The position numbers were made by a program, and so were the translations under genes. From NCBI RefSeq assembly GCF_964355755.1, contig NC_092674.1, positions 24,862,001-24,926,000 on the forward strand: a stretch of DNA of 64,000 nucleotides. Direction: 5' to 3'. Shown here in pieces: positions 6,408-37,552 of this stretch (position 1 is the first letter of the stretch; each line of letters opens with the position of its first letter). The notes below the pieces were generated by a model. The model was not told where the DNA came from. It was given only the letters and a program-made list of their open reading frames with translations, and made no database searches. The DNA comes from Antedon mediterranea (lineage: Eukaryota; Animalia; Echinodermata).

Positions 6408-6438
<31 letters not shown>

Positions 6439-9152
6439 TAAAACTATACCAATGATAAAAACTAAATGTATAATTAAACATAGGAAGATGAAATAATATT
6501 TTGTAATTTAGACAACAGTACAAAAATAAAGTATGATATAATATAAAGTATACTTTAGTTTAGACTACCTAATATATACGTAAGGCCTGCGTGTATAATC
6601 AAATTAATATTAGGTAGGCCTATCGGTAGTATATTCGTTTGCGAGTGTTTTACGCTGTGTATACCAACACTATAGTGTTTAGGGTCATTCCAGGAACACT
6701 AATTCAGCGTAACCCATAATGTACCGTACAGTACTACATTATTGTGTTGCGGTTATTATAAGAATTACAAATGAATCGACCACACGATGGTGCATGTTGA
6801 TGTTCAAACTGTAAATAATTTAAAAACAGATAATATCAAACTAATATATAATAAATAATGTAATAAATCAGTTTATAAATAGAGGTTTTTAAAATAGTAT
6901 ACAATACAAGTGGTAGTAAAGGGATACCAATCACTTATGTTTGTGAAAATCTCTTTGTTCATGGGACCAACGGCTTAACGCCTCATCAAGACAGTATTAC
7001 CCTCATGCGACGTTACTTGGTACCAAAGACAACAACATTAAAACTTGCTTGCTACTTTTTTCTGAATTAAATTTAATTTTATATAAAACATGGTAATAGT
7101 CAGATCTAGGAAAAGACAAGAATCGTTCGTAGAAAATAACGCTGCTCATGTAACATTACTTGTGAAAATCTTTTTTTGTCATTATTTAACCTAGTTCGCC
7201 TTCATTTCCCCCTATTTTTTGCGCGTGGGAGGAATTCCAGATAATGTTCCAATTGTACGCAAGTTCAGAATTCGTTTTAAAGTACGGAATTACGTACACG
7301 GAGAATAAACGTAGCCTACTATGGACATAGCACCCATTATGGAATGCAAAGATGTGGCGACCGAAATGTCTACAACGTGACCGAAATGTATGGCGTGTAA
7401 ACTTTAAAACTGTAAACTTGATTTGAATAGCTTCATAACCATTCTGAAACATTTTTAAAAAGATATAAAAACCAAAACGGTTCAAATGTTTTTCACACCT
7501 GTTCCGGCACGGTTCCGAATCGAACATCAATTTTTCGTTTTCACGACGCTCCACGCGGCTACTATGCGCCTATCGATATGCGCGTAGTCGCATGAAAACG
7601 AAACATTGACGTACGTCGTTCGATTGGATTTTTCAGTGCCGGAACGTACAGGTGTGAAAGACCCTTTAAGAAAAGATAAGAATCGTACAAAATGAAAACA
7701 AAACAAAAACGAATAGTTTTCAGGAAATCTTTTTCGACGAGTTGTATAAACATCTTATTTTTCCAATTATTGTGACTTCATTTAAAAAAAAAATTTTGGC
7801 GAGTGCTGCTTTTACTAAGTTTGATTCCTATAAACCAGTTGTAAGGACAAGTTGTCAAATTAATGCTATCACCGAAAAAACATGTATTTGAATCTATCAA
7901 TCAGTTTGAATGATAGGTATATATGGAGACAAAGGTCTATACTTACATTGTACTATGATGTTCTTTTCTATCAGTATTGTGTAAGTTGCATTGCTTGATA
8001 TCAAAACAAAGTCAAAATGACTCAATATTTACATAGATTAGAAATATTATCTCAATTATCTGACATATTTACTTTTCCCCCCATTATTTATGCTTGCAAT
8101 TTTGACAAAACAAATACATTTTAAATTTTAAAAGGCATTTAAGGTATTTAGACATATTCAATTCCACCCAAATAAATGTAATCTTGATTTTTAAAAAGTA
8201 TAAACTAATTTTAGGAGGGTTTTGAAAATCAACATTGCATCAAAAATGAAAAAAGGTTTTATTTATACAAATATAACCAATATAAACTTCAATACTGTTT
8301 TGTTTGCCCATTTACTACTGTACACTGAAACCAGATGACATTTTTCCCATTAAAATACATACATCAAAACATTTTCGTACATTTTCTTTTTATTTTGAGT
8401 CAAACAGTATACCATGCTACATTTACGAGCAAGCAATGGTTGGGTTGAATGAATTGAACATTTGGTAAACAAAACAAATGACATTCATTTTCAAGTTGCC
8501 AATTATTGTTGTGTTTTACTGTGACATTAAAATTAAGAAAATTAATTAAGGCGAAGTGAAGCGCAGCGTATTGTCGGAAACGCATGCGTGATATTCATTA
8601 TATTTTCCACGTAATACGAGAATGTGCGACATTAATTCAGAGAAATATTTGAATTGCTATAGTAGCTGCGCTTCACTTCGCTTTAAAAAATGATAGTTAA
8701 TACCGAATTTGGAAGCGAAAACTGTTTCTTTCGAAATGTAGATCCAACCAACAAGCAATTGATAAAATATACCGTACATCTTCTAATTGTAACCCTGAGT
8801 TATTATTCTTTGATTGTTTTTTTAGGGTGCGTTACTATTAGAAGGGGGTTTACTATTAGAGTAGTAGGTTACTATTGCTAATCTTAAATTAAGCACCTGA
8901 AAATAGTAACCCACCCCCAACTTTTCCGGTCAGCAACTCATAGCAAAATAATAAAAACAATAAAAAATAAAAAAACAGTACGAAAAACAAATTTGGTTGA
9001 ACTCTAACTTTATATTATAAACTCAAAAACACTCAATCCTTCCCCACTCCCGAGATCAACATGCATTATCTCCTTATTTTCAAAATATGGCTGCATCATA
9101 AGTTTTTGTGACTTTAGTAGTGGGTTATTATTATAGATTGACTTATATGATT

Positions 9153-9822
9153 GGTTACTATTAGAAGGGGGTTACTATTAGAAGGGGGTTACTATTAGAA
9201 GGGGATTACTATTAGAAGGGGATTACTATTAGAAGGGGGTTACTATTAGAAGGGGGTTACTATTAGAATGGGGTTACTATTAGAAGGGGATTACTATTAG
9301 AAGGGGATTTCTATTAGAAGGGGGGTTACTATTAAAAGGGGATTACTATTAGAAGGGGGGTTACTATTAGAAGGGGGTTACTATTAGAAGGGGGTTACTA
9401 TTAGAAGGGGGTTACTATTAGAAGGGGATTACTATTAGAAGGGGGGTTAATATTAGAGTGTGGGTTACTATTAGAAGGGGGGTTACTATTAGAAGGGGTT
9501 ACTATTAGAAGGGGGTTAATATTAGAGTGTGGGTTACTATTAGAAAGGGGTTACTATTAGAAGGGGATTACTATTAGAAGGGGGTTACTATTAGAAGGGG
9601 ATTACTATTAGAAGGGGGGTTACTATTAGAAGGGGTTACTATTAGAAGGGGGTTACTATTAGAAGGGGGTTACTATTAGAAGGGGATTACTATTAGAAGG
9701 GGGGTTAATATTAGAGTGTGGGTTACTATTAGAAGGGGGTTACTATTAGAAGGGGGTTACTATTAGAAGGGGGGTTACTATTAGAAGGGGGTTAATATTA
9801 GAGTGTGGGTTACTATTAGAAG
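9153..9822. repeat. Minisatellite, 17-18-bp unit (TTACTATTAGAAGGGGG), about 38 copies
   Basis: Directly visible, with a variant unit TTAATATTAGAGTGTGGG interspersed. Confidence 0.97.
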
Positions 9823-11426
9823 ATAGCCTACAGTACACAAATAACAAATGTATGTACTGTAATTGCTCTAAACGGAACTACAATTTACCCAAATTGTTTA
9901 CATCGTTAAATTTATATTACAGTATATATTGTAATTTAACCTTTTATAAATTCTACCTTAAAATATAGTTAACGATTACAATGTAACAAGGAGCTAGCTA
10001 ACATTGGAATTGGAATTCCCCATTTAAACACAGGCAAATATAAAAAAAATAAATAAAACAAATAGTTAAAACTTTAATAACTTTCGATTGATACAAATGA
10101 CAGTTATTTCTTCACCTTAATTGTCGCAAGGGTCTACTTTGTTTGTCATTACATGTCTGGGAGGAAATCCGGGTAAGGTTCTAATTTGATATTAAGAATA
10201 TCCTGGATTTATATAGCACCTAATGTTGTGAAACCTCTAAGCGCTGAAAATAATTACCCCGGTCATTTTTGCATCAAACACGTTTGGAAACTCCCATAAT
10301 GAGAAATTTCTGATGTATGTTTTTATATATTGGACCAAATAAAGAATAATAACAATGCAGCTAGTAATCAGCGCAAAGTTGTGTCTTGATCTAACCGGGT
10401 ACCCATTAGATCAAGGACGATCAAACTTTATTACAGAACTCCTTTTAAAGTAAGTAGGCCTTAATACACGGAGAAACGCACTATGAGCATATCATCCATT
10501 ATAGAATGCCAAGATGTGGCGACCGAAATGTCTACAACGTGACCGAAATGTATGTTGTGTAAACTTTAAAACTGTAAACTTGATTTTAATAGCTTTTAAA
10601 TTAGCGTAAAAAATTAAAAAAATCAAGAATATAAAACAAATTCCAAAAGACATGTTAAATATTATTAAAATTGACAGCCGATGATACGATTTACACACAA
10701 AGTTATTACAAAATAATCTGGTATTAATATTTATTTACACTAAATATTATTTTTATATTATATTGTTGTTATTGAATTTAAAATCAGAGATTTAAAAAAT
10801 ATTATGAGGTTGATTTGACCCACTTAAACAAAATTGTTTAACAATGTTTTTGTTGAATGGCATTTCAATTCAAAATAATGGATTAAAACGAATAAATAGT
10901 CGACAAGAAGATTTAAAGCTTCATTTTGTCTTTCTTATTAAATGAAATAATTTTTTTCCGTGGAAGTGAATAGGCCTACCATCAAAAATACAAAATGGCC
11001 TCAACGTTTATTTTGGAGGAAAATATAACTTTAAATAATTGATAGACCAAGATGTTACAATACAACCATCTGTTTGGTTTGTAATCTATGCCTATCAGTA
11101 GAAACCTCTCAGACAAATTAGTCACTGTACAAATGAAGAAATAAAGTTAACTTCTCAATCGAGATCTCCAAACGTCGTAATAACTGACCACTGCCGATGT
11201 CAGAAACGGAGTTGCGCCCTCTTTTTTCTTTTACTGATAACCCGTGTTTTGATGACATCATACAGAAATAGTATCCATATTAATATTATGTTCATTATCT
11301 ACAACATACAGAAAACGTATGTACTGTATGACCACAAACTTAGAAAGAAAAAATAAATGCACAGTAATAATAATATCAAATTAGATTACTAATTATTAGA
11401 TGCTAATAAAGTTATTTTTTTTACAG

Positions 11427-11736
11427 GACAACCAAGATCTCAATAACTTGGAGGAAGAAACATCGAACGAAATAGTTGAAGTGAGCATTGAGGTGGGGTT
11501 AGATGCTGAACAAGAACCAGACGACATCGAAGGAACACATTTAACCTTTAAGGCTTTCGGCGGTACGGAAGATGATTCAGAGGAGGAGGAAGGCCCGTTT
11601 GCACAAATATTACACAAGATCAAACGTAATGTGGTTGATGAGGAGGAACCGACAGAAAGCCCAGGTAAAAAGAAAAACAGGGAGGGCAGGCGAAAATCAA
11701 AAGATGAAAAGAAGAAACGAAATAATAACGGTGAAG
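11427..11736 (+). CDS. Gene 1 exon 2: acidic stalk, putative proprotein-convertase site KIKR, basic cluster
   Basis: Acceptor tttttttacag|GAC; open acidic reading frame DNQDLNNLEEE...; KIKR|NVV; basic KKKNREGRRKSKDEKKKR; phase-1 donor AG|gtgaat at 11737 (an alternative gtgaag at 11731 has the same phase). Confidence 0.85.
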
Positions 11737-14150
11737 GTGAATTCTAATCGTTCGTTGCTTTAATTTGTCGTGCCAGCTTATTAACTTCGCTATTTACACA
11801 CTTTTTTTCTATCAAGTCCTATGAATACCACGCACTACGTTTTGCCATTAACACCGCCAGTTTACATTCCCATATTCCATAAACATTTTTTTCAAAATCA
11901 TTTTAAGCTTTGTCAAATTTTATTTTAAAAGTACTATTCGTTTGCTTTGCATGATGTTTATTTTGCCATTTTCTAAATACTGACATTAATGCCGACGCTA
12001 GTGTCGAAATATTAAATTACTGGTACTGGTACTGGTTCAAATAACCGTCTCACAGAGACATCTGGTAGCCATTGACTTGAAGTTGGCATTTGGATGTGTT
12101 ACTTTTAAATGTAAGCCTACAGGTATGAGAGTGACTACTACCAAATTACACAGTCACAAAACAACTTATAAAACAGTTCATATTATTATAAATTAATTCA
12201 GGTCTTTAATTTCAGATGCCAACTATCTATCTAATTATCTATTTATAATCGTAAATTGAAGTTTAATTTTCATTTTCAATTAAACATTTACTAAATCCCA
12301 AATGTTTTCGATAAAAGTACGAAATTCGTTTTTTACATAAACGGCTATAACTTGCGTAGGCCTATAAATCTACTGGAACTGACTGTATTACAATAAAAAA
12401 AAAAACATGAAATATAAATTAGGGAAGATGAATAAACTCTTCCAAGACCCAGTTGATCCTTTTCAAGTTATTGCCACTTCTCGTCTATTTTAATTTATGT
12501 ACAGCGCATTGAGAGCTTTCTTTTAATGCGCTATATAAGAATGAACTGTTATCATTATACTTGGAAAAACCACGTTTGATTGTAATATATTCAATTGCGA
12601 GAAACTTACCAATATTTTTTTACAAAAAACTACCGTACAAGATGCGTATATGCCCAATTAACAGATACTTAATTCTCATTAATAATAATGAATAAAGAAT
12701 ATTTATTCGGGATAAAACAAAGTTGCTAATAATGTGACTTTTTAAATTTGTATAGTAAATCAAACAAACTGTTTATTGAGAGTATCGAAAGCTAATTCTA
12801 ACGGAAATAATTTTCCAATAAATAAATATATATACAAAATCAATAATCAAAATAAAAACATTCATAAAATACGCACATGCTGGTTTTTCCAAATCTTAAA
12901 AAAAAATAATAACAACAAAGTACAATAATAATACTAAAAATCCCAAGAATAGTGGTTTTTACGATTTTGTTTTTAAATAAAATAATATAAACAATTTTAA
13001 AAATACATAACATAATTTTTTATTGGATGGTGTTTTTAAATAAAATAATACCAAAAATAGTAATAACAATAACAAAAAAACCGGTAAAATTCACAGGCTC
13101 CTTATCTGGTTGAGATAATTATCTATATACGAAAGAATTACACGTAAAACGGATATAATTTACTTATATTTAGATTTTAAGCTATTTTCGACGCAAAATA
13201 CACAATTCTTACGTCATTACGGGTGGGTGTTCTTTTCAACCGGAAATTATTATAAATACTGTATATTAATATAATAAGCAGTAGACTAATATAGGCCTAT
13301 ATGATTTGGTACAGTTTAATAAAAAAAAAAGTGTGATCTCCTGTTTGGTTATTGTCATGACGAGTTGTGTAATACAATCCCCATAAGAACAAAACTATTC
13401 CCATTGCTCGATGACTATACATTCAGTTAACATCTTACCGACATCATTGTTACTGGCTACCTATGTAGCCCCATTACTCGATGACTATACATACAGTTAA
13501 CATCTTATCAACATCATTGTTACTGGCTAACTATGTACAGATGCGTGCCTAACCTGTTCGTATGTACTTTATTTTACCGGCAGCAACTGGGATAGGCTAT
13601 TTCCCAGTTGTAATCAAGTTTTAAAAAAATAATGTTTTTACTTCACTTCACAAAAAGACAAAATATATTCCAAAAAAAACCCACTGACTTCCAGTCAATT
13701 TGGCTATTTATTTGCATTAAATTAGTTTTTTAGGTAACACTTTTTTTGTTATCCAAATTTTGTGAATAAAAATTATGTGACATTAAACAAATTATTTGTT
13801 TCAGTGGAACAATATATTTTTAACAGCAAAATTTTCATTTTCCGCTGTATCGTATTAAGTTTGCAACACACAATTCAAAATATTGAACTTTCTCACTGAC
13901 TTGAACTAATAGAGTGAATAATTACTTACAACAACCGATTCCGTATTATACGTCAACAAATGCATTATTTACCTCTTGACATGCAGACATACTAGGACGC
14001 AAGCGTAAACGAAAGTAATTCTCTATCCAATCACGACGAAGTCTTGCATTGCGCTTGTAGGCCTACTTCATGTCCTTGTGTTGCGTCACAAGTGTTAACA
14101 CCTCTTCATGCCTTATATTCTGACTCCAATTTAATATAATTGTGTCTTTA

Positions 14151-14331
14151 AAGCGTGGTTCCCACTAGCGACGCAACGCAAGGACGTAACGCAACGCAAG
14201 TGAATTGACCAATCACAAGCGATGGCTTATTCGCTTGTGATTGCTATCTGTCTATAACTTCGCTTGTCATTGGTTAAAACGCTTGCGTTGCGTTTACGTC
14301 CTTGCGTTACGTTCTAGTGGTAACCAAGCTT
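14151..14331. mobile_element. MITE family B copy
   Basis: TIRs aagcgtggttcccactag / ctagtggtaaccaagctt, TA flanks; nearly identical reverse complement of 30773-30953. Confidence 0.85.
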
Positions 14332-15940
14332 TAGTTTTTATACTACTGTATAGATATTGGCTAATATTACTAATACATATAATATTACAGTTTACTATCT
14401 ATCCTATGGTACTGTGTTCTATTATACAAATACAGTACTAACTTTTGTATAATTATTATTTAACAAGTTTTAAATTAGATTAATATCTAACGAATTTTGC
14501 CCAACCTGATCAAAACGAAACAAGCACTATTCTAAACAAATAAAGCTGATTAATGGTAGTTATCTAATTGCACCAAGCGTTTTCATCTACTTGTATTGAG
14601 CGGATTACTTGATCTTAATGTCTCAACCGTTTTGGTAACATGTCCTAAAAAGTTATTATTTCTTAATGATAATACTTAATACATCCTAATTAAACAAAAT
14701 TAGTTATATAGCTATCTATACGATCTACATAGTTATTAATTAGTTTCGATGATATTTTTAAAACACAACGTAATTCAATATAACGAAACTGTAAATAAAA
14801 ATAGTATAGGCCTATTTCTAAAACAGAAAGCTACACGTAATTTAGCAACAATGAACAACTAAGCAATTCAAGATAGCAACAAAAAGACTAATAACGAATG
14901 TTTTTTTAGTTTTTTAAAACAAAATAATATATATCGTACTGTTATTACCAAAAACTTTTTTCAGTGTCTGTACATTGTATATAGTCATTAGACCTACTAA
15001 AAACATGTTTAAAAACTCCAATTGAATAACATTGTTTCGATAAGTAATTCGTTAGATAATTAGAAGAGATAAGATCAAACAGTCAATGCTGAAATGTCGT
15101 TCTAAAATTTTAAATTAAAAAAAATGTATAATATTTACATATCAGTTAATACCGTTTGCAGTTTATGTCCAAAATAACTATATACAATTAGTTAAATTGA
15201 ATTATTTTATTTATTCCTTCTCTATACTGAGTAGGAAAAGATGTTTCGAAAAGATAGCAAATCAAACCTATTCTCTGCTGAAAGGTCTTTCTCAAATTTG
15301 AAAAAATAATATATGTTCATGCTGTTGTTACTAACAATTCGTTTGCAGTGTCTGTGTTATAATAAATGGATAAATATAATCCAATAAATTATACGTTATT
15401 TATAAGAAGACCTAAGATAGATCTTTTTTTATTTAAAAGTATACAAAATATATGTTCATGCTTTGTTACTAATAAATATTGTTTGTCATGTCGGTTACAA
15501 ATAAATACATAGTATAAACAGGGAAGAGTGAAATAAATTTTACACTTCCCTGGTATCAATTTATTCAATGAAAATTACATAAGAAGAAGCGTTTAGATTC
15601 GATTTACTGGTGAAATTGCAACTAAAATATTATACGAAGTCATTAGAAAAAAAGTTTGTGGCCAAATTGTGACGCTGTAGGCCTACAAGACATATTCCGA
15701 GAAGTTATTAATCCAAAACATTAATGTAGATTTCATAATTTAGCTTTCAAGGAAAACCGTTCAAAAACAAATTTTGTTTGACAAAACTAATTTGCTATGT
15801 ATATAGGAAGAGACAGTATTTCTTTAAAGGTTCAGATTAATAAAAACCCCTCAATACTAATAGTAACTCTTTCTCCTTATAAAACTTATACGGTTTCCTA
15901 ACATCAAACTAATTATATATTATATTTCTTCTTTCCTCAG

Positions 15941-15970
15941 GTGACAATTCCCAAGAACCAACTGCAAAAA
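15941..15970 (+). CDS. Gene 1 exon 3 (30-nt micro-exon, GDNSQEPTAK)
   Basis: Strong polypyrimidine acceptor tttcttctttcctcag; donor gtatgc; phase 1-1. Confidence 0.65.
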
Positions 15971-17075
15971 GTATGCCCTTCTCTATATTCTTATTAGCTT
16001 AATTTAATCAATTTTATGTAATTGTGTACATGCAATTTCTTGTGATGACTGTTAAACGTTTGTTCTTTTCCAATCTAGAGCACAAAATATACAATAATAT
16101 TTACACTAATATGACACTACTATATCATAAAATTATATCTACTTACCTTAATAAAATGCTTATACTAACGTGTATATAGAATGGGTACTCGTCTTATCAT
16201 TCCTATCGAGATTAGTAAATATGAACGCTTGTAACCAGTCTTCTTTATGATAATCAAAGATGTACTTTCTATGAATTGTTTACCAGTTATTAAACAAGGG
16301 GATTCCCCATATAATTTTGGGTTCTACTAAGTGGTAAAATATCTTGTGTTTTATACATTATGCTTTACCCCTCCATTGTTAGTTAAATTTATATTACAAA
16401 TTCGGTCCCTCTTTGTTTACTCCGCCAATTGATTGTTGCACCTGTTTGGTATTACCAATTCGCAATATAATTCAAATAAAATATCTGAAGTTTACACAAA
16501 ATTATATATGACGCAGATTTTAAATGTAAAGGTGATTTACCTAAGCCAAAACTTGTCTATTGTTTTTGAAAGTGAGAAACGCTAGGCGTTTTATCCAGCC
16601 GCTCAGTGGTTTATCATAACGGAATTCTACTATGTCTTATTATGTAATTTTTTCTAAATGTCAGATGTCTGGGAATGAGCGAACATTATAAAATATTATC
16701 GAATAACATTTTGATCAATTCTGTAACATTTTCGAAATTCTAGAAATCTGTGGTTTAACGAAGTTTTTAAAATCGCTTCCATGCTTTAGAACATTTGGTC
16801 ATTACATTCATAACAAATGTTACATTCTTTCAATCATTGCAATTATTGATAACTCCATGATAATGATAAACAATTTTGGCAGTTTTACAATGTTTATTAT
16901 TTGCAGAAATTAGAATAAAATAAATTAAATCAAGGTAATAATGTCTACACTTTATTTGTGTGAAATATCGTTCATTTTGATAATTTGCCAAAATTACGAT
17001 GCATAATTTGTTTTCCAATATAATTGTATATTTTTGTAATGAATGAAAAATGTATAATATATTATTTCTTTACAG

Positions 17076-17105
17076 ATTGTAGAAGGGCTTGTAAAAATAA
17101 TAGAG
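17076..17105 (+). CDS. Gene 1 exon 4 (30-nt micro-exon, NCRRACKNNR)
   Basis: Acceptor tttctttacag; donor AG|gtaatt; phase 1-1. Confidence 0.65.
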
Positions 17106-17838
17106 GTAATTATGATTATAATTTTATCTATTTTTATCAGTTTCATCAAGCAACTTAAACTAATTACTTACTTACGTTATGAATTTTGTTTTGGACTCAT
17201 CTTCAAAATACATTTTTAAATAATATATATGTAGTTAATAATTCAGATAGAATCCGTCTTTAAAAATGCAATACTACTCAATGTAGGAAATCGTCTGTCC
17301 TAAACTCAATACATGTCTCGAACTCAACATTTTAAAGATAGTTAAATTTTTTTCTAATTTGAGTTTTAATAATTATATTGTATTTATTTTTATTACTATT
17401 AAGTGTTATATTTTTCTGTATTGTGTGTCTAATTTAAGCATCAAGGAAAACAAATTTCATGTTCGGCTTGTTGTGGTCATGACAATAAAGATTTATCTTA
17501 ACTTTTATAGCCTATAAATGATAAACAATGCATAGAACACTTTAGACAAAAAAACATTTTACCAATACTTTTAAGTAGTGTAAAGCTCACCGTGATTTAA
17601 AGCCATTGAATTGAAACAAAAGATAAGTTGATTTTTAAATATTGTAATAAAGAGGAGGAAAATGTTCAGAAAATGTAATACAACAAAGGCCTACATTGTT
17701 ATTATTATGTATTATTATACTTGATCCAATTCACAAACAAATGTTGGTAAAGCATAAATAAATAAACGACTGAAGTTAAAATTCTAATAAAAAAGTTTAA
17801 ACAATTGACTTAAACATTATTTGTGCTTTCTTTTATAG

Positions 17839-17882
17839 TACCTCCTGTCGGGTGTGGGCCATGCGCAACCAAACAAACCACG
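17839..17882 (+). CDS. Gene 1 exon 5 (VPPVGCGPCATKQTT)
   Basis: Acceptor ctttcttttatag; donor CG|gtaagt; converts phase 1 to phase 0 as the next exon requires. Confidence 0.75.
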
Positions 17883-18174
17883 GTAAGTTATCCATGATAT
17901 TATAATATTGTACATTTTGATCATATTTTGTTAGGCCTACTTTATCTGTAAACTCCTAATGTTGTACGAAGTCCAAGCGAACATATTCATTTAATGGAAA
18001 CGTTCTGCTGTAAGTAATACAGTACCATATTATAAAGTAAAAATACTTATTGGCTTATGTGAAATACTTAAATCACTTAAGTGTGAATGTTGAACACGGC
18101 CACATACTCCAGAAATACTAAGTATTTAAGGGAAATATCTCAATTTTAAGTGAGATTTCTCAGCCGATTCTCGG

Positions 18175-18360
18175 TACTGTATCTATTTCTGTATCATTAT
18201 CAATATTTGGTAATACAACATCACATTTGTTTCACATGCATCTAGCAGTAACCTAACCAATCTTACATGATACCGGTATCACATGTGATATAAATGAGAT
18301 GCTGTATTACCAAATATTCCTATGATACTTCGGAAATAGATAGTATGTGGAGATACAGCA
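18175..18360. repeat. Imperfect fold-back inverted repeat (probable MITE relic) in gene 1 intron 5
   Basis: aatatttggtaatacaacatcacattt pairs with aaatgagatgctgtattaccaaatatt; outer ctgtatct / agatacag. Confidence 0.65.
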
Positions 18361-18594
18361 CTGGTAATGGTGGATTTAGGTAGAATAAATATTGAATCCT
18401 GATTATTTTATTTTAATATACTCCTATTGTATTGTTAACTTCAGTTAAAAATAATATTACGAAGACATCATTGAGGATTATTCCTAAATTAGAATTCGTG
18501 TATATGAGAAGTATGTAAATGAGACGGGGTTTTTCAGAATCAAACGATATTTATTTTCGTTGATGTAATTATGTTAATTTATCTAACTCCGCAG

Positions 18595-18697
18595 AATAAT
18601 CATGAACACCATCACGAGCATGACCACGAGTCTCACCATGAGCATAAAGTTGGCAGCGTGCACTTTGTTGGTTACACCGAAAGCGTTGTGTCGGTTG
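18595..18697 (+). CDS. Gene 1 exon 6: His/Glu-rich linker plus strand A of the TNF homology domain (SVHFVG)
   Basis: Acceptor ccgcag; translates NNHEHHHEHDHESHHEHKVGSVHFVGYTESVVSV; VHFVG resembles EDA VVHLQG; phase-1 donor gtaagt at 18698. Confidence 0.85.
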
Positions 18698-19456
18698 GTA
18701 AGTCAACTTCTTTTGTTGACGCGTTTTTGTCATAACATATACGTTTGTACGTCATGACGCAATCGCTTTTGTGCTGTAAAGTTCAGTGTTTATATTGTAT
18801 TGTCATCTTTTTTATGGTGCTATATGTTTTGTTTAACAATTCTGTATTTTATTTGTTATATTTGTGCTTATTGTTCATCCTGTAATGCAATTTTCATCGC
18901 ACCGCATGTGTGGCTTCTTAATAATCATGCTACAATAGCATGTATTTAGTTACTCACTCACTTTACCCATTCAGCAATGCACAGATATTTTGTATATAAT
19001 ACAAGTAAAATAATACACACTCAAATGAATGAATTCAATATTTCGACAATAATTATAAAAAGTGGTAGACTGAAACACGTACAGTAAATATCTTAAATTA
19101 TGCAGTGTTTGTTAAAACAATTTTGTGCGACGCGAGGTTGGTGAAGTGTGTAAATTGTAATGTGTGACATAGCTTTTCTAACACTTGGCAAAAATAAAGA
19201 GTTTCTTTTCTGAATGGCCTAAAATACATTAAAGATGGAAGCAGCGAAAAGTTTACTTTAGAACATACTGTGGGTGTGTAATGAATGTTTTGTATTTGCG
19301 TATATGGAATGCATTCGGAAAGCCTGGTTGTTCTATTAATATGACACTATCAGGCTTTCAATGAATTGAACGAAATTATATTCATATCTCAATTTTTTTG
19401 TATAAGTATTCGGGATCACGCACATTGTTTGATTATTGTTTTCTTTTGTACATTAG

Positions 19457-19489
19457 ATGATGAGAAAAATCCAGATATGGCTTCTGTTG
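19457..19489 (+). CDS. Gene 1 cassette micro-exon a (DDEKNPDMASV)
   Basis: Acceptor ttcttttgtacattag; 33 nt; phase 1-1; donor GTTG|gtgaga; paralogous to micro-exons b and c. Confidence 0.7.
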
Positions 19490-19631
19490 GTGAGATTATT
19501 TTTATTTATTTATTGTACTAATTATGCATTAGGCTTAAATCCAACGATACAGAAAATTCAAACATTAATTCAATCGTGTACGCATATTACCACATCTTCG
19601 GTTTCGAAAATTCATTTTGTTTATTTTAAAG

Positions 19632-19661
19632 ATCCCATGAATCCAAAAATGAGAATAGTTG
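19632..19661 (+). CDS. Gene 1 cassette micro-exon b (DPMNPKMRIV)
   Basis: Acceptor ttttgtttattttaaag; 30 nt; phase 1-1; donor GTTG|gtgaga. Confidence 0.65.
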
Positions 19662-19679
19662 GTGAGAATTTTTGTGTAA

Positions 19680-20140
19680 ACATTATATATTTCGGCTGCT
19701 AAAAAAGTGATGTAACTTTAATCGTACTTCCCAACATTCATTTTTAAAAGCATGGCACACTTTGCAAAGAATCTTCTCTACGCATGCGTAGTAAATATTA
19801 TTTCGGCTGCTAATAACTATAAAAACGAAAAAGTATTTAAAAAAAAAGTGACGTAACTTTATTCGTATTTCCCAACATTCATTTTGAAAAGCATGGCACA
19901 CTTTGCAAACAAACTCCTCTACGCATGAACATTATTTCGACTGCTAATAACTATAATAACGAACAATTATTTCAACAACAAAAAATGATGTAACTTTATT
20001 CGTATTTCCCAACATTCATTTGAAAAGCATGTCACACTTAGCTAACAAACTCCTCTACGCATGCGTAGTAAACATTATTTCGGCTGCTAATAACTATAAT
20101 ACGTAATCGTATTTCCCAACATGCATTTTTGAAAGCATGC
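19680..20140. repeat. About four tandem copies of an approximately 120-140-bp unit between micro-exons b and c
   Basis: tatttcggctgctaa...cgtatttcccaacattcatt...aaagcatggcacactt recurs. Confidence 0.85.
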
Positions 20141-20428
20141 ATATTTTTCTAAACAAACAAGACGGGAAATAAGTTTGGAGTACATTACAATTATACTTTT
20201 TCTGCTTTACTGCACTTATTTAAATATACATATTTTAAGCTACAGTGAACTTTGTTTGGAATGAAGAAAAAAATGCCTGCGCCGGAAACATTTTTTTATT
20301 TTTATACACGGCGTTTGGATACAATACAAAGGTTAAAATACTAAAAGTATTGCAGTCAGGTGCCTACCACGGTCTTCAATACCACCATATAGATCTTACT
20401 TGTTTTATTTGTTCTATATGTATAATAG

Positions 20429-20461
20429 ATCGGCCGATAAATGAAGATATGGTTGAAGTGG
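20429..20461 (+). CDS. Gene 1 cassette micro-exon c (DRPINEDMVEV)
   Basis: Acceptor ...tataatag after a T-rich tract; 33 nt; phase 1-1; donor GTGG|gtgaga. Confidence 0.65.
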
Positions 20462-21405
20462 GTGAGATGATATTTTATGATTTTTTTTTCACTCTGCAAC
20501 AAAGATTCGTCTGATGTATCATTCAGAATTCTAGCTGCGACTTTATCATTCCAAAAAGTGTCACTTTGTTTGCTTTTACCTAGCATTCTGTTCCAAACAT
20601 AACCAATACATATAGCCATGCTAACACACGTTCACCAGCCTGGACAATTAATACTAGTTTCATAATCCACATAATTCATAATAATAATAATAATTCATAA
20701 TTCACAACTATATTATAGTTGTCATAATTACCATTGCTCCAGAATTAGATCAAATATATTCATTCTCAATGCCACATTCTCGATTGATTGATTGATTGAA
20801 TGGTTGACAGACTTACTAACTATCTCTCGTTTTACGTTATCTTTTCTGCATGGAATTCTACAATTCTTATCATATCATATATTGTTTGTATGTAGATATG
20901 ACCAACGAATTGACTTATAGACGAGGTTATCGACTAACTGACTGTGACTAACTAATTGACTAACTAATAACTGAGTGTGAATGTGACTGATTTTGACTAA
21001 CTAACTGGCTTACTGTGACTGTGACTGACATGATTGTTTTTTCTTCGGGCCATTCGACCATTTATTCATTCCACTAAATCACAGTTCATTACATATAATT
21101 AAAAGAAATATGGGTTTTTTTTTCAAATTAGACTAGACTTTAAAATTGACCAACATCATATGTTGTATTTCCGTCAAATTGTGTCATTTTGTTCAAACAT
21201 ATTTCACGTTTATTTTTTGTTTATGTTTACTGAAAAGCATTTTGAATAAAGTGCTTAAAGACAGAGTAAACGTTAAAGATACATTGATGATGTAACCTCC
21301 CCCCCCCCCCACTCAAACACATCAAAAATCAAAAAGTATGAAATCAAACTTTGAAAACACTTTTAAAATAATCCAAATCAAATTATTGGCACTTATTTTT
21401 TTCAG

Positions 21406-21530
21406 ATGGTCTGATTCCGTACTGGGCATATGCAGACTGGGTGGACGACTCTCAGAAAAAGATGTTTCACCTCAGCGAATTTGGAAACGTAACGGTATCA
21501 AGGGCAGGCATCTACTTCATTTATTCACAG
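21406..21530 (+). CDS. Gene 1 TNF-domain exon (strands A' to C)
   Basis: Acceptor ttttttttcag; DGLIPYWAYADWVDDSQKKMFHLSEFGNVTVSRAGIYFIYSQ with the TNF signature GxYFIYSQ; phase-0 donor CAG|gtaatt, the same junction position as vertebrate EDA. Confidence 0.92.
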
Positions 21531-22975
21531 GTAATTTGACATGATTTACTTTCTTTCTAAAAAAAACTTATTACAAAAAGAAAACAAACAGAAAAAAAGG
21601 AAAAAAAAGAAAAAATTGGAAACAACAGTACAAAAGGCACACATCTATCTTTTATTATCATTTATTCACTGGTAATTTGAAATTATTTACTTTCTTTCTA
21701 AAACAATTTTTACAAAAAGAAAACTAAAAGAAAAAAAAGACAAATTTGGAAACAACGGTACAAAAGGCAGACATCTACTTCATTTATTCACCAGTAATTT
21801 GAAATGATTTACGTTCTTTCTACAAAAGAAATTATTACAAAAATACAACAAACAGCAATGAACACAAAAAAGCAGATATCTATGCTGCACGCGGATAAGC
21901 TGTAACAGGGTTCATTATCATTACAACACTAACAGATTATAAATAGCATGCTATCGACATATTAAAAACCAGGTTAAACAAAACAAAAACATTTGGAATG
22001 TTATGGTCTTTCTTGTGCGATAATAAATCAGAAACTACTGTAGTATCCTGTTTATCATATTAATGTACGATCTTGGGCTTCAACCTTAAATCAAAAGCTA
22101 ATTTGTTTCCTCTATTTATTTATTTCATAATTTCAAATTTTGACAACAGCGCTTTTACCCACTAAGTAAAATGAGTGGGTTCAATTGTAATGTTTAATAT
22201 CTTGGATCCTGTTTTGATGTAGTAGTCAATATTACAGTTCTGTTATTTTAACCTTTATCCGTGTAGAGTGTGGGGAATTTTTTTTTTAATTTTCGCAATT
22301 GTTTTTCTACTTATCTGTTGATGTAACTATTAAACTCTTCTTATTTGCCTTAAAACGTCAACATTCAAGATATTAAATATTAATTAATTGATACATTGAA
22401 ATCAAAATATATTGCAAAGAGTTTACAAACTCATACTGTATTCATCAATCGTCGCAAAAACGGTATTAATTATTATGATATAATTACTGAATTTTACAAC
22501 AACGAAAAATCTTTTCACTGGGTTAATTTTTACTTTTATCACATTTTTTAATAATCTAATAGTATAGATGAGTTAGTATTGATATTCCTGTTGAAGTGTC
22601 AACCAGCGACCGACCAATGGGGTTATTCAAATTGAAGTCGCATATTTCCACTTCTTTAACTTTAGTTCACACGATGTAACTTAAGTTCTATGCATTTCTA
22701 TCTTGCTATTGCGCATTGCTAAAGTTTGGTTTCCAAAGACATTTTGACCAATCACAACGAGATGGATCATCCGAACTTTTGTTTGTGATTGGTCAACTCA
22801 CTTTGGTTGTTCCTTGTCGATGCACTGGGTCCAAGTGGGGACTAATCTTAACTAATTTTGTATGTTCTATACGCTTGTAAAAACATACACTTGGGAGAAT
22901 CGAGTGTCATTATCAGAAGTATAATTCATAACCGGAAGTGCTTAAGTTACATTAACATTAATACTGTTTGCTTAG

Positions 22976-23218
22976 GTTATGTACTACGATGGCGACCATC
23001 CGTTTGTCGGCCACAGTATTTATATAAACGACGAGCCGTTCGTAACCTGCACCGAATGCGTTACAAACCCAAATCTGAAATACAACACATGTTACATTGG
23101 TGGAGTGACGCGAATTCCAGAAAACGCTACAGTTGGTATTCGCGTTGGATATAACCGACGCGTCATACATTTGAGTAGCGACACTACATATTTTGGGCTG
23201 GTTGGATTAGGGAAGTGA
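22976..23218 (+). CDS. Gene 1 alternative terminal exon A (C-terminal half of EDA-like TNF domain)
   Basis: Acceptor tgtttgcttag; VMYYDGDHPFVGHSIYINDEPFVTCTEC...KYNTCYIGGV...DTTYFGLVGLGK*; aligns by eye to EDA (VYY...DEKPFLQC...YNTCYTAGV...TTFFGAIRLG). Confidence 0.9.
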   Translation, partial: VMYYDGDHPFVGHSIYINDEPFVTCTECVTNPNLKYNTCYIGGVTRIPENATVGIRVGYNRRVIHLSSDTTYFGLVGLGK

Positions 23219-23491
23219 TGAACCTAAGTCTTGATAAGATGATTATGCGTGCGCATGGTCTATTTTTCTTAAGGGACAATGGTAACACTTTGCACAAGCA
23301 GTCATACATACACTATGTCTGCTGTCGCAAATTAGAACATAGTGTAAATATGTACGGGAAAATGAGTTATTTTGTACATTGTATTGTAAGTTTATGACGT
23401 AATTAAGTTCGTCATGGTAAGATTTTGTCATCACAAATTATCCTTAAAATTGATCCATGAACTGAAACTGTGGCGTCTGTTTTAACTACAG

Positions 23492-23725
23492 GTACAGTAT
23501 TACGATGAGAATGATTTTACCGGACACAGTATCATGGTTGACGGTGAACCATTTGTCTCCTGTACCGAATGTCCCGTCAACAATTACCGCAAGTATAGTA
23601 CCTGTTACGTCGGTGGGGTAATTCGACTAGAGAAAAATGCCCAGGTAGGCATCAACGCAAATTATCGCACTAACATCAGACTCGCCAGTGACACGTCTTA
23701 CTTTGGTTTTATCAAACTTGTTTAA
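23492..23725 (+). CDS. Gene 1 alternative terminal exon B (duplicated C-terminal half of TNF domain)
   Basis: Acceptor ttttaactacag, phase 0; VQYYDENDFTGHSIMVDGEPFVSCTEC...KYSTCYVGGV...DTSYFGFIKLV*; intact ORF, about 55% identical to exon A in a manual alignment. Confidence 0.88.
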   Translation, partial: VQYYDENDFTGHSIMVDGEPFVSCTECPVNNYRKYSTCYVGGVIRLEKNAQVGINANYRTNIRLASDTSYFGFIKLV

Positions 23726-23920
23726 CGCGTCGATGTGTGGCTTGTTTAACGTATCGATGTGTTACTTGCTCGCGTCGATGTGTTACTTGCTTAACGCGTC
23801 AACGTGTTACTTGCTTAACTCGTCAACGTGTTACTTGCTTAATGCGTCAACGTGTTACTTGCTTAACGCGTCAATGTGTTACCTGCTTAACGCGTCAACG
23901 TGTTACTTGATTAACGCGTA
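23716..23920. repeat. 24-bp minisatellite (GTGTTACTTGCTTAACGCGTCAAC), about 8 copies, starting at the stop codon of terminal exon B
   Basis: Directly visible. Confidence 0.92.
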
Positions 23921-24218
23921 TATTAGTTTAGTAAAATGGCCATCTTCTTTGGCACAGTTTCATGGATCAATTTCGGATATTTATGAGACAAATTCTATCA
24001 ACTAATTATTAGAAGTATTCAGGAAAAGTAGAACCAACATTTTAAGTATACAGCTTAGTTCTTACTTGGATGGGAAATTAGTTTGACCAATCTGTCACTT
24101 GTGATATTGATCAAATTGCATTTTCGAGTTGTACGGCATTGCGTTTACGTTCAAAACAGAGCGTTTACATCATTGCGTTTACGTCCAAGTGGAAACAGAG
24201 CTAGACAGTTTATTTATA

Positions 24219-24234
24219 AATAAAGTGTAATAAA
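24219..24234 (+). terminator. Candidate polyadenylation signals for gene 1
   Basis: Two AATAAA hexamers (24219, 24229) are the first seen downstream of both terminal exons; none seen between exon A and exon B. Confidence 0.45.
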
Positions 24235-26454
24235 ACAGTATATTATTATATAATTATATATAAACCCATAGAATTTAATACAAATATCTTTATTTAAAAT
24301 CACAAAGCCGTTTTTAGGAAAACGTCGTTAAGATAGTAGGTGGGAGGTGGTCAGACAAATAATAGGTGTAAATTGTATTTGAATACTCATTTTCCCTTCT
24401 GACTCATCATTGGAACGAAAAACACATGTTGAATAACAGAGCGTTTTGTTAAGGTTAAAATTGACCCATATTTGTGAATATACAATTTGGGAAATCCCAT
24501 TAATCTTGTTTTAACTATACTTCTCAAACGCAGCGCATTTCGCAACTAATGACCTTTTAAAAATAAAAGAATAACAGCAACTCTTTCCTTTCTTTTGGGA
24601 AAATAGGGTCGGTGGTTGGAATCCAACAAACAATTTTGTTAGTCATAATGGTTTTTGTCTTGTTATATTTTTCTAAAACGTGAACATGGAAGTAAAAAAA
24701 ATATAGAATAAAGTAACGAAACAGAAAATTACGTCAGCAATGTGACGTCATCATTCTATTATTCTGAAATTAGTTGCAAAATGGAAACAAAAACTTTGAT
24801 CGAATCATTACAAATAATCAGATTTTATTAAAATAAAATAAATAAAATAAAAATAATTTATGGTTAACATTGAATTTTCCGGAAAAGGGGGATTTTTAAC
24901 CTTTAACCTTTAACCTTTAAGGTTTAGTTTAAATTGGTATTGATCATATAACTTCTTTTCTGTTACGTCCATGTTCACTTTTAACTAAATACTATTAATT
25001 TATGAAGTTTATCATTTTTGTAAATATTAGTTTAAGTTATTTTAATTTGTATTGTTTAACCACTGCCTTGTTTTTGTATTCTGTTCTGTGTGATATGCAA
25101 TATTTATTTTTCCAAAGAAGTTATTTCAGTTGGAGGGGTAACCATGTCTAAGGTGTTAAAAAAAAATTCACACTGGCGTTGTTATAGTATTGGACGTTGA
25201 TGCTATAATCACGCATTTTGTGTTATACCGTGGAGGTATTCATCCATGGTTATCTACCATATTCTCCCTACTGTATATATGATTTGTACGGTATCATCGC
25301 AAATACCGTAATGCAGTGTCATATATTACGCCTATCAAAGCCTAATTTAACCCAACCCTAACCAAAACATATAGTATTGCAGTTGTCACATGTTATATTT
25401 ATGAAACACTGTATGACATAATTTGCAATGATACTTGACAGATTAATGCCATTTGTGTAGATCGTACAAAGAATCGGGTGGTTATACAGTAACATTTGCA
25501 CTTTTCTTATTCCATTTGGACTTTCCAACAGTTTTTCTGTGAGGTTTTAAATTTCACCCTACACTAACTTCTACCCATTTAGCATGTTGATCATGATAGG
25601 ATTAAGTTCCAACAGAATATTCCTCGTAAATCTGTAACATTTTGTCAGTGATACTACGACGTTACGTGCGCGTACAAACATACGTACGTACGCATAAAAC
25701 TAATTCGTGCGATCACTGACAATTTAGGATACCTCGTGTACAGGCCTCAGTAGATTTTAATAATGTATATTATTTTCGTCTTGTAAATACATATTTTGAA
25801 ATAATAAAAGATATACCGTATACGTTGTGAACAACTTTGTTTATATCGTTCTAATAATTGAATTACGTAAACGAACGGAATGACTTGACCTACGTCAAAT
25901 ATAGAAAGCCGTAACCGTTTAATTCAGTCATATTGCTGATAATGACTCTTTTGATAGACGATGATAACTGTGTTAATATGAAGAAAAAATAATACGCAAG
26001 AATTTATTATATATATATTGATAATAATTATGATGATGATAATGCGAAGGTACTGATAATGATTGTGTGATGATGATAATGATGATGTTGATGATGAAGC
26101 AGTAATACTCCGGTGGATCTCGATGCCACGTATTTCAGATCATCACTGCCTGGTTCATACATCTACACCACCGAGTTAGTGTTGGATTCGAGACCAAGGA
26201 AGTTGTGCCTTTACTATACTAGACCTACTCTTGCCTTGACTATACTAGACCTACTCTGTCATAATAGTAATTGATATTCGAGAAATATAGTCTAAATTAG
26301 AGTTCATAAATATACTTATATAAAGTAAAATTGACGTCGGAGTATTAGGCCTAAATCAACACATCTGACCAATAACAGTATATATATATATATTGTATAC
26401 GGAATGCTATTCATGTCCCTTTAAATAATGTATACTGTCATTTCAAGGAATTTT

Positions 26455-33247: not shown

Positions 33248-35975
33248 AAGAGCGCGTACACCCTTGTACATGCGTTACGCTTTTTTTCAATTCTCGTTTG
33301 ATAACCTGAAATGTATCAGGTTGTAAAGATATAATTGAAAGCGTGCGTGTAGAGCACGTAACTATTTTACTGTATACCCATTACTATAGTGAATATTTGA
33401 ATATAGACCTGCTTGGAAAAAAATCGTTTTGATGTAATCTTTTTGACAAAAAGACAGACAGGGTTAATCGGATACGTATTTGTTTCTCATTGGCGAAGGC
33501 AATACAAAATTACTGAAAATTTGAAAATATGTTGAAAATATGTTGAAAATATGTAGCAGTAATAATTAAATAATTACATTATTATGTACATGTAGCGAAT
33601 CATTATGTAGATAAGCATTAGTCAGTAGTATAGTGCTAGCGTTGTTTGTAATAAGTACTTCTCAGTAGGCCACAAATTATTGCCTAATATTGTGAATTGT
33701 ACCACCTCTGATGGATTCCCATTGTGAATGTTAGTGTTTTTTTCAACTGTGTACTTAACTTATGTTTTGATTTATCATTTTGATTTGTATTAATTTTTAT
33801 ACCTATATTGAACAACTTCAAACACAGTACCCTCCCACTCAAATTATTATTGAGTCATTTTCTATTTATAACGAAAACAATAAGTTGGGAAAAAACTACA
33901 GAAATGAACGTGTATTCCTTACTGGTGAGTAATATGCCTTTAGCAAATAACACTGAACATAAACACAGGTTGAATAGGATTGTGAAGTAGATATTCATTT
34001 TTTTTAAAATATATCACACACCATACAAATTGTGCTATACCAGTGAAGAATGACAGTTAACGGTTTATCGCACGGATCGGTATAAACATTAAATTACATA
34101 ACAATAAACTATGTTACCATCTAAGTTTTTATAATGTTCTGAAGCGAAAGCGGAGTTACTCTATTATTAAAATTTCTATTTATATTAAAGTACGAAAACA
34201 GAAACAAACAAGCAGTTAATGATTGTCTTTTTCGGAACAATATAAAAAAAATATTTAGAGAAATCCTCCTTAAAACAAACCAAAGACAAATTACTATTTT
34301 CTTTTATACTAAAAATAGACAAAACGAAATCTTTTCATAGAATTAATATGATAATACTATTATAAACATTTCATATTGATATGGTATTTGTATATATAAC
34401 ACACCCTCGATTCACCCTAAGCCAGGTGACGGGAAGCTTCTTCGAAGTGGTTCTCCACTTTCGAGACATTGCAACAACTTCCGTAGATCTGGCCGGCAAC
34501 TCTTCATGTACATTGCTTACACAGTGATAGTAGGCATAATAGTATTGAAAATATAAAAAAATAAATTAAAAAAAGGAGTGTTACTGTATATAGAAAGCAA
34601 TGTGTTTATCAAATAAAGGAATTTTATTATGGAATAAATCTACAAATGTTTATATATTTTGAAAACTATACAAACAATGTCTATTAGCAAAGTATACAAT
34701 ATGAGTATAAGTAATTATAAATATTAAGAACTTGTAAACCTTTTCTTCTTCTATTAACAAAAGTATGTCACCGGGTTTTTAAAAATTAATTAACTGAATG
34801 AAAATTTTGAATTTATTTGAATTTGTTGTATTTTGTTGAAAAACCTTTTGAAATCTATTATATGTTTAACCTGTAATTTAAGGGCAGAGAGTGAACCCAC
34901 ATATCGTAGGGAAGATCAATTCTCTCGTAATTTTTATTGCTTCCCTACTTTGCGTCATTAGAGCTGAATTTAATATATTTAATGAAATTGATATTTAAAT
35001 GGGGTTCTTTCTTTATAAGCATTTGCTTCTTGAGTTTTCTTCTTTTCTTTATTTTATTTTGTTGTCATATTGAAATGTTCATCGCTCAAAGAAAATAAAA
35101 GAAGTTGCTTGTCATTGTAATAATAATTACTAATTTATCAAACTATATGAACAAAAATGAGAACAATGAGACTAAATTGAAGATTGTTAATTGTACACTG
35201 TGAACGCGAACTGATAAAACACATTTTCGCTTTATCTTATAATAATATGTAGCTATAAATAAGATAAGCCATTATCGATAATGATATAAAATGTGATCTT
35301 TTATTTTTTTCATTTTTTTAATTATGCCCTGGCCTTTTCAATTTAAAAAAAGGGTTTAAAAAATAACAGTTTTTGCTGGAAATTCCTCCAAGCTCGATTA
35401 AGCTTAGATCATACGCAACGCAATTAATTTGACCAATCATAAGCGAAGGATCATCCGATAAAGTTGCTTGTGATTGGTCAAATTACTTGCAATGCCTCGT
35501 ATAATCAAAGCGGCGTCATATAACCTTTGACAATTCTTGCAGCTCGTACTACCACAGCGTGAAACTTCGAATTTAATTAACTGAAATAAATTAAACAACA
35601 TATCATAATCTAAATTGATAAGTTTTCGTCATAAACTAAAAATAAATGTTGAAATATAATTGTTATTAGAAAATTTAAATATCAGAAACTCAGTTTCAAT
35701 ACATTGCACTTGCTATTGGTTTTGATACTCCAATCCGTCACAACATTGTTATAATTTTTACGATGACACAATCGAGTGCCCCGGAACATGCATTATTTAT
35801 AGAATCCACATATTTCTGGGTATTACGCTGAATATTCATTAGGGACAAAACTATTATGGGAAAACTAAAATAAATAGAGTGGGATTAGAGAATCTCATCA
35901 CTTTGCTCCTGAATCATCACAACTCAAAACATACTTTGAAGAAGCTAAGAAAACGTATAGGCCAACTTAGTGAAA

Positions 35976-36239
35976 ATGTTCAGTCAGTTTGATATGCCAA
36001 GCAATGAAGTCGGCTCATCAGAAAAAGCCGCCAACGGAAAAGGACCAGAAGAGATGCGAGGAAAAAGTTCTTCTGCAAGAACGTACCTTAAACCGGTGGT
36101 TTTGGCAGTTTTTACAGTATTCATGGTCAGCATTTTCACGTGGCAAACAGTGTATTTGGTACGGGTCTCAAATAGGTTAAGTCTTGTGGAAGAAGCCGTC
36201 CCAACGTCCAGTACTTGGCTCGCGAGTGACGACACAGAG
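35976..36239 (+). CDS. TNF-superfamily ligand gene 2, exon 1 (type II transmembrane)
   Basis: ATG at 35976 (alternative 35994); TM segment VVLAVFTVFMVSIFTWQTVYLV; phase-0 donor GAG|gtaggt. Six-exon model gives about 301 aa. Confidence 0.85.
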
Positions 36240-37552
36240 GTAGGTCTAATCGCTTTATTTTTTAATTTTGTAGAGGCATTCGCTGACGTTTAGGCTTATT
36301 TAAGTGTACAATTAATTTGATGTTTAAATTATTCTCATCGATAATAGCATTATAATTACTATAGGCCTAGTATACTAAATAGTTGCTATTATTCATTTTC
36401 ATCATTATTTCACTTTTAAAGAAAGTCTAAAATCTTAAACAAATAAATAAAAAGATAAAAACGAATTGAAGAAATTATAAATGCATTAAAAACATGCGTT
36501 TACAAAAAAAAAAAAAAAGTAACGCTCAGAAACCGGGCTGGTTATTTATATAACAAATTGTTGTTCCTTGGCGACACATTTCAATTAAAAAACGTGAATT
36601 ACAAAAATAATTACAAAAATATAATGTATTTCAAAAAATTATAGCTGACATGGTCAATATTAACTTTAGAAACACACATCTGGGTTGATCCACTTAGATC
36701 AAGACACAACTTTGCGCTGATTACCAGCTGCATTATGGGAGTATGTTTCCATATGTGTTCCAAAAAAGTACTTGGGTAATAATGTTCAGCCCTTAGAGGT
36801 TTCACAACATTAGGCGCTATATAAATACAGGATATTATTATTATTATCCTACAAAAATAAAAAGTATTTGTAGGCTCACATCATAGTTTATTTATCATCA
36901 AGAAAATATTTTAAAATAAGTTGTTTCTTGATAGGATTTTGGTATTGCTTTTTCTTGGGTTAGTTATTTTTATACAAGTGCAGTTATTATCGTTATTTCT
37001 TAAATCCCAGCAGAAATCAGGACAAAATAACACCATTTGTTTAAAAAAACTACAGAATGTCTAAAATAAAAAATAGTCAGACATTTTTTCAGTAGTTAGA
37101 TAGTTCAACCTACCGTATCTAACTCCCCAAAACAGAAAAAAAACGTGCAACAAAAGTTGGGTGTGTGGTAGATAATAATAATGTAATAACAAAAAATAAC
37201 ACAAAAATGTTATAGAATGTTTTGCCACACTGTTTATTTTTCATATTTGTTTTAAATTGCCTCTGTCAATTATTAGATTAGTGTGAGTCGTATTTTCGTC
37301 TACAATACCTGTTGGATTTCGTAGTTACAGATACCAGGGATGTGTTTTTATAGGCCTACCTCCCTGCAGATACGTTTCCATTGTAGGGTTTATGATACAG
37401 CCACAGCAAGCACCCATTGTCTGAAACAGTATGAAGTCCTTAGTCCTAAATTACATATGTGAAGCACTGAGGGCGGTAGACATTATTTGCACAATTTTAC
37501 AATAACAACAATATTGTAAATTAATTTGATTTTATTCTGTTAAAATCTACAG

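Follow-up and report, generated by a model that had tools for sequence, protein, structure and literature searches.

In the crinoid Antedon mediterranea, a gene for an EDA/Eiger-like TNF ligand is annotated with two alternative, homologous last exons, A and B. We conclude that this pair probably reflects an old tandem duplication, with one donor spliced to either last exon and with two resulting ligands that likely differ in receptor preference. The gene lies in the 64,000-nucleotide stretch of DNA that we analyzed (the window; Table 1). Nine upstream coding exons (3858 to 21530, all with GT donors), followed by A or B, yield translations that equal RefSeq proteins exactly: isoform X1 (XP_071951134-6, three accessions, 404 aa) ends in exon A, and isoform X2 (XP_071951137, 401 aa), from the same protein cluster, ends in exon B, which is 100% identical to the end of that protein. 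Because the exons of the window reproduce both isoforms exactly, both forms are already present in automatic annotation. RefSeq derives alternative isoforms from transcript alignments.

Table 1. Exons and associated features of the Antedon gene, with positions in the window.
Feature	Position	Strand	Basis
Coding exon 1, from the ATG: coiled stalk preceded by a short cytoplasmic tail and a type II transmembrane helix	3858..4121	+	RefSeq match; helix 24-77 in both structure models
Coding exon 2: acidic stalk in which KIKR (152) and KKKR (183) are basic, putative shedding sites	11427..11736	+	RefSeq match; cleavage putative
Three small Cys-containing stalk exons, without collagen repeat	15941-15970, 17076-17105, 17839-17882	+	RefSeq match, Pfam/motif scan
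Exon for His-rich linker and TNF strand A	18595..18697	+	RefSeq match, structure models
Three microexons of 30-33 nt, similar to one another, for the loop that follows strand A	19457-19489, 19632-19661, 20429-20461	+	RefSeq for first and third; middle an unannotated in-frame candidate
Shared exon: N-terminal half of TNF domain, ends FIYSQ, common GT donor at 21530	21406..21530	+	RefSeq match
Alternative last exon A, 80 aa, RefSeq isoform X1	22976..23218	+	Pfam, RefSeq, model, contig fork at acceptor
273-nt spacer, free of the poly(A) hexamers scanned; serves as 3' UTR in isoform A and as intron in isoform B	23219..23491	+	Hexamer scan, contig
Inverted repeat, 5' arm, 45 nt, imperfect; ends 27 nt before acceptor B, overlaps candidate branch point	23420..23464	+	
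Alternative last exon B, 77 aa, RefSeq isoform X2	23492..23725	+	Pfam, RefSeq, model
Inverted repeat, 3' arm, in 3' UTR past exon B	23955..23996	+	
Two AATAAA hexamers (24219, 24229), candidate shared poly(A) signal	24219..24234	+	Hexamer scan

The initial annotation had described A and B as intact, diverged terminal exons for the C-terminal half of the TNF domain, and that description holds. Each has a phase-0 AG acceptor, an open frame and its own stop (TGA in A, TAA in B); with separate stops, the two are mutually exclusive at the protein level. A manual count of about 43 identities (about 55%) agrees with BLASTP, which aligned the pair with 43/78 identities (E 5e-29). The donor at 21530 from which both acceptors were thought to be served is a GT, joined to A or to B in the exact RefSeq chains, and the gap between the exons, noted earlier as free of AATAAA, contains none of the 14 poly(A) hexamers for which we scanned. 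Taken singly, exons A and B score 23.6 and 28.9 bits against Pfam TNF (PF00229, cut-off 23). When an EDA-type profile was compared with the 1092 six-frame ORFs of the window, only A and B reached about 87 bits, the next match being the upstream exon at 37. We observed no alignable similarity between the flanks of A and those of B (local scores 18 and 14). A and B are adjacent homologous exons of the same phase behind one shared exon, the arrangement that defines a tandem duplicated exon substitution. That the second exon is instead an assembly artefact, or a remnant of a neighboring paralogue, is scarcely credible and already largely refuted. Local gene duplication has occurred here, as two more TNF-like genes lie downstream in the window; however, A, the gap and B all lie on a single contig of an independent run, synonymous saturation shows that the copies are not haplotypes, and no second exon for the N-terminal half lies between or near A and B.

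The encoded protein has a hydrophobic helix near residues 29-48 followed by an extracellular stalk, a type II single-pass topology as read from sequence, and at its C-terminus a TNF homology domain (40 and 44.5 bits for PF00229, whose cut-off is 23). Both isoforms gave complete jelly-roll models, with pLDDT mostly >90 over the TNF domain (residue 290 on). Foldseek searches with the isoform B model returned EDA-A2/A1 as the best matches, followed by Eiger (E 4e-13 to EDA). Among solved structures matched by sequence and structure, ectodysplasin A was likewise best, then Eiger and APRIL/BAFF; in one comparison EDA was outscored solely by a three-domain APRIL-BAFF fusion, which sums its domains. 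Vertebrate EDA-A1/A2 and the Antedon protein are alike in being type II membrane proteins with a C-terminal TNF domain and an exon junction after FIYSQ. By contrast, vertebrate EDA has a collagen repeat and a furin site, whereas the Antedon protein has no Pfam collagen match, no Gly-X-Y run, no collagen-like exon within 4122-18595, and no strict R-X-K/R-R site, its basic motifs being KIKR and KKKR. In a tree, the Antedon protein fell inside an echinoderm group (88/94), with the branch to vertebrate EDA left unplaced. On these comparisons of sequence and predicted structure, we class the gene as EDA-like, not as EDA proper.

The A-B duplication is old, since synonymous sites are saturated. Over 77 codon pairs, the pairwise rate check that had been suggested for A and B gave a pS of 0.93 (saturated) and a pN of 0.32, with a bootstrap range of 0.23-0.47 for pN/pS, a ratio that by itself cannot show current selection on each copy and for which Antedon is the sole crinoid compared. 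The exons are identical at 47/77 first, 55/77 second and 24/77 third codon positions, and agree at 3/16 fourfold sites. A profile built from 54 non-Antedon relatives, whose own members score 67-118 bits (median 94.8), gave 101.8 bits for A and 96.8 for B, values typical of the family. The two exons agree at 29/38 conserved but only 14/39 variable columns of this profile (p 0.0005), and at 33/52 positions in predicted strands versus 10/28 in loops (p 0.02), with differences falling mainly in loops, including the strand-C/CD region, on which the specificity of EDA depends. Synonymous sites are saturated, yet frames, core residues and fold are intact, as expected from the earlier proposal of long-term selection on both copies; the pairwise and profile comparisons together argue that purifying selection acts on both.

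Transcript evidence came from four of five listed runs, compared over positions 3850-23849, the records being assembled contigs, not split reads; run X1 we guessed to be RNA. In run X1, a contig of depth 39.5 starts at 22974, and an intron contig of depth 5.4 has an end that fits 23003 if placed on the right, or 22769 if on the left. Ends at 22974 and 23003 are those expected of a splice fork when the upstream exon and the intron have their two letters just ahead of acceptor A in common and contigs are built from 31-letter words (the k of Logan contigs). DNA runs X2, X3 and X5 have equal depth on either side of acceptor A, and a contig of X5 spans 22742-23178. We strongly infer that the fork in run X1 represents spliced RNA entering exon A; the run also holds intron sequence. 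Runs X1 and X5 both read C for G at position 23033, which changes codon 20 of exon A from Glu to Gln. The high-depth contig of run X1 crosses the gap and exon B unbroken, including at 23488, the expected place of a fork for B. This fits an A transcript with B in its 3' UTR and a B form that is rare in the run X1 sample; contigs drop rare forms. The same contig has 1313 further letters, reaching about 25155 if colinear, although contigs cannot mark the end of an RNA. For splicing to B, the evidence is the RefSeq model. A contig that runs from A through the gap to B, together with two annotated isoforms, is consistent with the initial view of competing 3' splice sites and a shared downstream 3' end; the A and B mRNAs would differ by 516 nt of 3' UTR.

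These data also bear on whether exon B is rarely spliced, or was recently silenced within the 3' UTR of the A transcript, with RefSeq isoform X2 representing splicing noise. We consider this very unlikely. The missing fork at acceptor B in run X1 would fit, as would the predicted pairing of the acceptor B region (see below), the longer B branch in all three of our trees (0.48-0.71, versus 0.36-0.45 for A), and the 34 columns at which the exons differ, where B matches starfish at 5 and A at 11. However, B is intact after synonymous saturation, and a long-dead exon would have lost its frame. Moreover, at the 20 most conserved columns B has the family mode at 15 and A at 14, and B is predicted to fold with high confidence.

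Compared with most other acceptors of the gene, A and B have weaker pyrimidine tracts (58% pyrimidine, 42% T). Acceptor B and exon B are bracketed by an imperfect inverted repeat of 45 nt, which grows out of a perfect one of 15 nt and whose 5' arm overlaps a candidate branch point, read by eye from the consensus. This repeat has a score of 45, which was reached by 0/2000 shuffles and by 1/251 other like-spaced pairs in the window. A fold of 23219-24250 gave pairing probabilities of 0.89-1.0 at 23447-23459, and neither arm has a further copy in the window. From the modeled fold, pairing of the arms may mask exon B; alternatively, the arms could be a repeat relic. A z-score of -8.65 was set aside as inflated by a palindromic tandem repeat. 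The tandem repeat (23703-23939) has a partly palindromic 24-nt unit, starts at the exon B stop and folds into long hairpins. A weak inverted match between 22830-22848 and 24052-24070 was dropped as part of a dispersed repeat.

The variable 3' region of PGRP-LC in Drosophila, as described in PMC6191721, resembles the Antedon arrangement in that one gene has tandem 3' cassettes that give recognition variants. There, cassette choice is steered by RNA pairing of one docking site with several selectors, as proven by mutation (PMC6191721). By contrast, PGRP-LC is a receptor with a competing docking site, whereas the Antedon gene encodes a ligand and has a single predicted duplex bracketing B. We found no docking site of the PGRP-LC/Dscam type in the intron at 21531-22900, whose pairing with the surroundings of A or B did not exceed that in 20 shuffles. 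At 21478-21858, the 3' end of the shared exon and its donor are triplicated in tandem into the intron in units of about 130 nt, the two extra copies being decayed, with altered donor contexts.

We propose that an old tandem duplication would have left an EDA/Eiger-like gene with two intact last exons, and that the common donor at 21530 would be spliced to A or B, giving proteins with the same stalk and first half-domain and a different second half. The 3' splice sites of A and B would compete, both forms would share one 3' end further downstream, A would be the default, and pairing of the inverted repeat around B would help to hide B. The A and B ligands would then bind different TNF receptors, or bind them with different strength, and mixed trimers would be possible. 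The conserved strands make mixed A/B trimers plausible, as does the solved structure (4zch) of a single-chain APRIL-BAFF heterotrimer obtained by engineering.

Given that both ligands are made, the balance tips somewhat toward a difference in receptor preference, by analogy with human EDA. According to PMC9918506, Val307-Glu308 of human EDA lengthen strand C, and Tyr310, Tyr311 and Tyr343 form an EDAR patch; in the form without Val307-Glu308, the tyrosine patch and the EF loop are reshaped. Receptor choice depends on the EF loop and on the end of strand C, with splicing switching between EDAR and XEDAR (PMC9918506). Antedon exons A and B differ from each other at these places, namely just after YYD, where the change includes an indel of one residue, and in the stretch leading up to the equivalent of Y343. 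The vertebrate difference is one of two residues; by contrast, about 80 residues are swapped in Antedon, by means of duplicated exons. It is also possible, although unlikely, that both exons are used but the ligands bind alike, the pair being kept for regulation (tissue use, 3' UTR length, stability or glycosylation). Consistent with this, two of the three EDAR patches of human EDA lie in the N-terminal half (PMC9918506), the half common to the A and B forms, and both exons keep tyrosines equivalent to Y310, Y311 and Y343. In addition, the two C-halves have equal net charge (-1), the A form has an extra N-glycosylation sequon at 374, and the mRNAs differ in 3' UTR length as given above. On the other hand, 35/78 aligned positions differ, mostly in loops, and at this place a two-residue shift is enough to switch the receptors of EDA (PMC9918506). 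Repeated duplication of the same exon in amphioxus also suggests that the protein difference matters, in favor of a difference in receptor preference.

To place the Antedon pair among its relatives, we used a combined A and B profile, which matched 125 proteins at E up to 0.001; 20 of the invertebrate matches and later finds were looked up by cluster. We found no homologue in another crinoid among the candidates searched (exon A, 0/28; exon B, 1/9, this being Antedon), which is weak evidence of absence, and a four-sequence profile matched 5/3305 candidates, from Antedon and Asterias only, with no second crinoid. Two of the ten multi-isoform genes in view swap the C-half, namely those of Antedon and amphioxus; most of the other eight were seen only in part. 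Vertebrate EDA matches read FIYSQ-VE-VYY or FIYSQ-VYY, and genomic read-through matches place the last intron there.

The nearest relatives by path are starfish genes (Asterias rubens LOC117298882, A. amurensis and Acanthaster), which have the same junction and a TNF domain diversified by splicing. Unlike the Antedon gene, they have a single C-half, swap a strand-A segment and have a weak collagen repeat. Of the 22 isoforms in the two Asterias species, 21 carry the same C-half and the remaining one is truncated. Their variation lies instead in strand A, for which two homologous segments alternate, and in the loop segment that follows, which is either kept or skipped. A second TNF gene of B. 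lanceolatum alternates segments in the loop after strand A.

The amphioxus gene LOC144923575 and the B. belcheri model KAI8515188 are like Antedon in having alternative homologous C-halves after the same YFIYSQ. In LOC144923575, three different full C-halves and a truncated form follow the common YFIYSQ exon; among the isoforms compared (X1, X2, X3, X8, X9 and X10, with X4-X7 outside view), X1, X2 and X3 swap C-halves. KAI8515188 strings three C-half types in a row, one of which is a fourth type. The amphioxus array therefore has at least four types; of these four, two are without cysteines that are otherwise conserved. Unlike the Antedon gene, the amphioxus gene, known here from automatic models, has a collagen repeat, more copies and separate duplications.

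We inferred three C-half trees from 36 and 59 rows of about 80 columns, an alignment short enough to leave deep nodes open. A and B were sisters in all three (97/90, 94/93 and 94/92), a relationship recovered by 96-98% of bootstrap trees. Among the labeled rows, those from amphioxus, five in number, formed a group of their own. Approximately unbiased tests rejected the grouping of A with amphioxus X1 (p-AU 0.016), of B with the other amphioxus exons (0.004), and of A with starfish and X1 (0.019), but not that of A with starfish alone (0.061). Hence, the crinoid and amphioxus exon duplications likely arose independently, as judged from these alignments. A duplication predating crinoids, in which either A is the orthologue of the single starfish exon and B was lost in starfish or all copies descend from one ancestral deuterostome array, seems to us quite improbable. 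It would be compatible with the unrejected A-starfish grouping, with A being nearer than B to the starfish exon, and with the open deep nodes; however, the sister relationship of A and B, the rejection of all three groupings of crinoid with amphioxus exons, and the one C-half of the Asterias isoforms all speak against it.

Swaps of this kind are a known class. In a human catalogue, 77/236 tandem duplicated exon substitutions are homologous C-terminal swaps; such events retain core residues and have commonly arisen by convergence (PMC9741552). By contrast with the human terminal swaps, which are often exposed tails, the Antedon swap replaces half a globular signaling domain. The main text of that catalogue contains neither "TNF" nor "ectodysplasin" (PMC9741552), and "splicing" is absent from the main text of three papers on TNF-family evolution (PMC12843592, PMC7674686 and PMC11762692). 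A full-text literature search, with most subscription papers and supplements outside its scope, returned no account of such an arrangement in a TNF ligand. Amphioxus TNF genes were reportedly treated by Huang et al. in 2008, and the EDA pathway is said to have been surveyed by Pantalacci et al. in the same year; the amphioxus exons may already have been noted, or counted as separate genes, in earlier literature. The Antedon pair is, then, a real tandem-exon substitution of a known class, and its recurrence in EDA-type ligands is apparently undescribed.

On its own, the crinoid pair is an ordinary tandem-exon swap; what makes it significant is that a second lineage shows such a swap at the junction of EDA-A1/A2 too. 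Usually discussed for vertebrates only, EDA-A1/A2 serves as the standard case of a ligand for which splicing selects the receptor. In two distant invertebrate deuterostomes, duplication of a whole exon at that junction diversifies an EDA-like ligand, so that it becomes testable how the switch arose. We tentatively suggest, as a speculation that may well fail, that the intron in the middle of the TNF domain of EDA type is a recurrent switch point at which the crinoid (two exons), amphioxus (four or more) and vertebrate (the two-residue A1/A2 choice) lineages independently gained control of receptor specificity by splicing, the Antedon duplex around B setting the ratio of forms. If so, a single gene of an invertebrate deuterostome would provide a set of TNF ligands, which mixed trimers might multiply further, and gene-counting surveys would miss such sets. 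TNF repertoires counted by gene understate ligand diversity. The A and B forms are natural half-domain chimeras with which to map the surface of the TNF trimer that sets receptor choice.

Several other features of the window were observed. The three microexons of the Antedon gene (Table 1) have near-identical donors and are thus another set of duplicated exons within this TNF domain; the segment that Asterias skips or includes matches them. A second, divergent TNF-like gene at about 35975-40924 (+ strand) has a membrane-helix exon and two exons that weakly match the EDA-type profile (E 0.007 and 0.03), with no Pfam match for any single exon. A third, at about 53424-58460 (+ strand), has two exons that match the EDA-type profile, 57797-58114 (E 0.0002) and 58261-58460 (E 0.002), and near 53424 what is probably an exon for a membrane helix. 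Between these two genes lies a cystine-knot exon (46985-47257, + strand; PF00007, 24.5 bits), which by its motif is putatively norrin-like. A laminin G-like ORF of 225 aa lies at 60453-61127 on the - strand (PF13385, E 0.001, below the cut-off), with more exons near 59942-63253.
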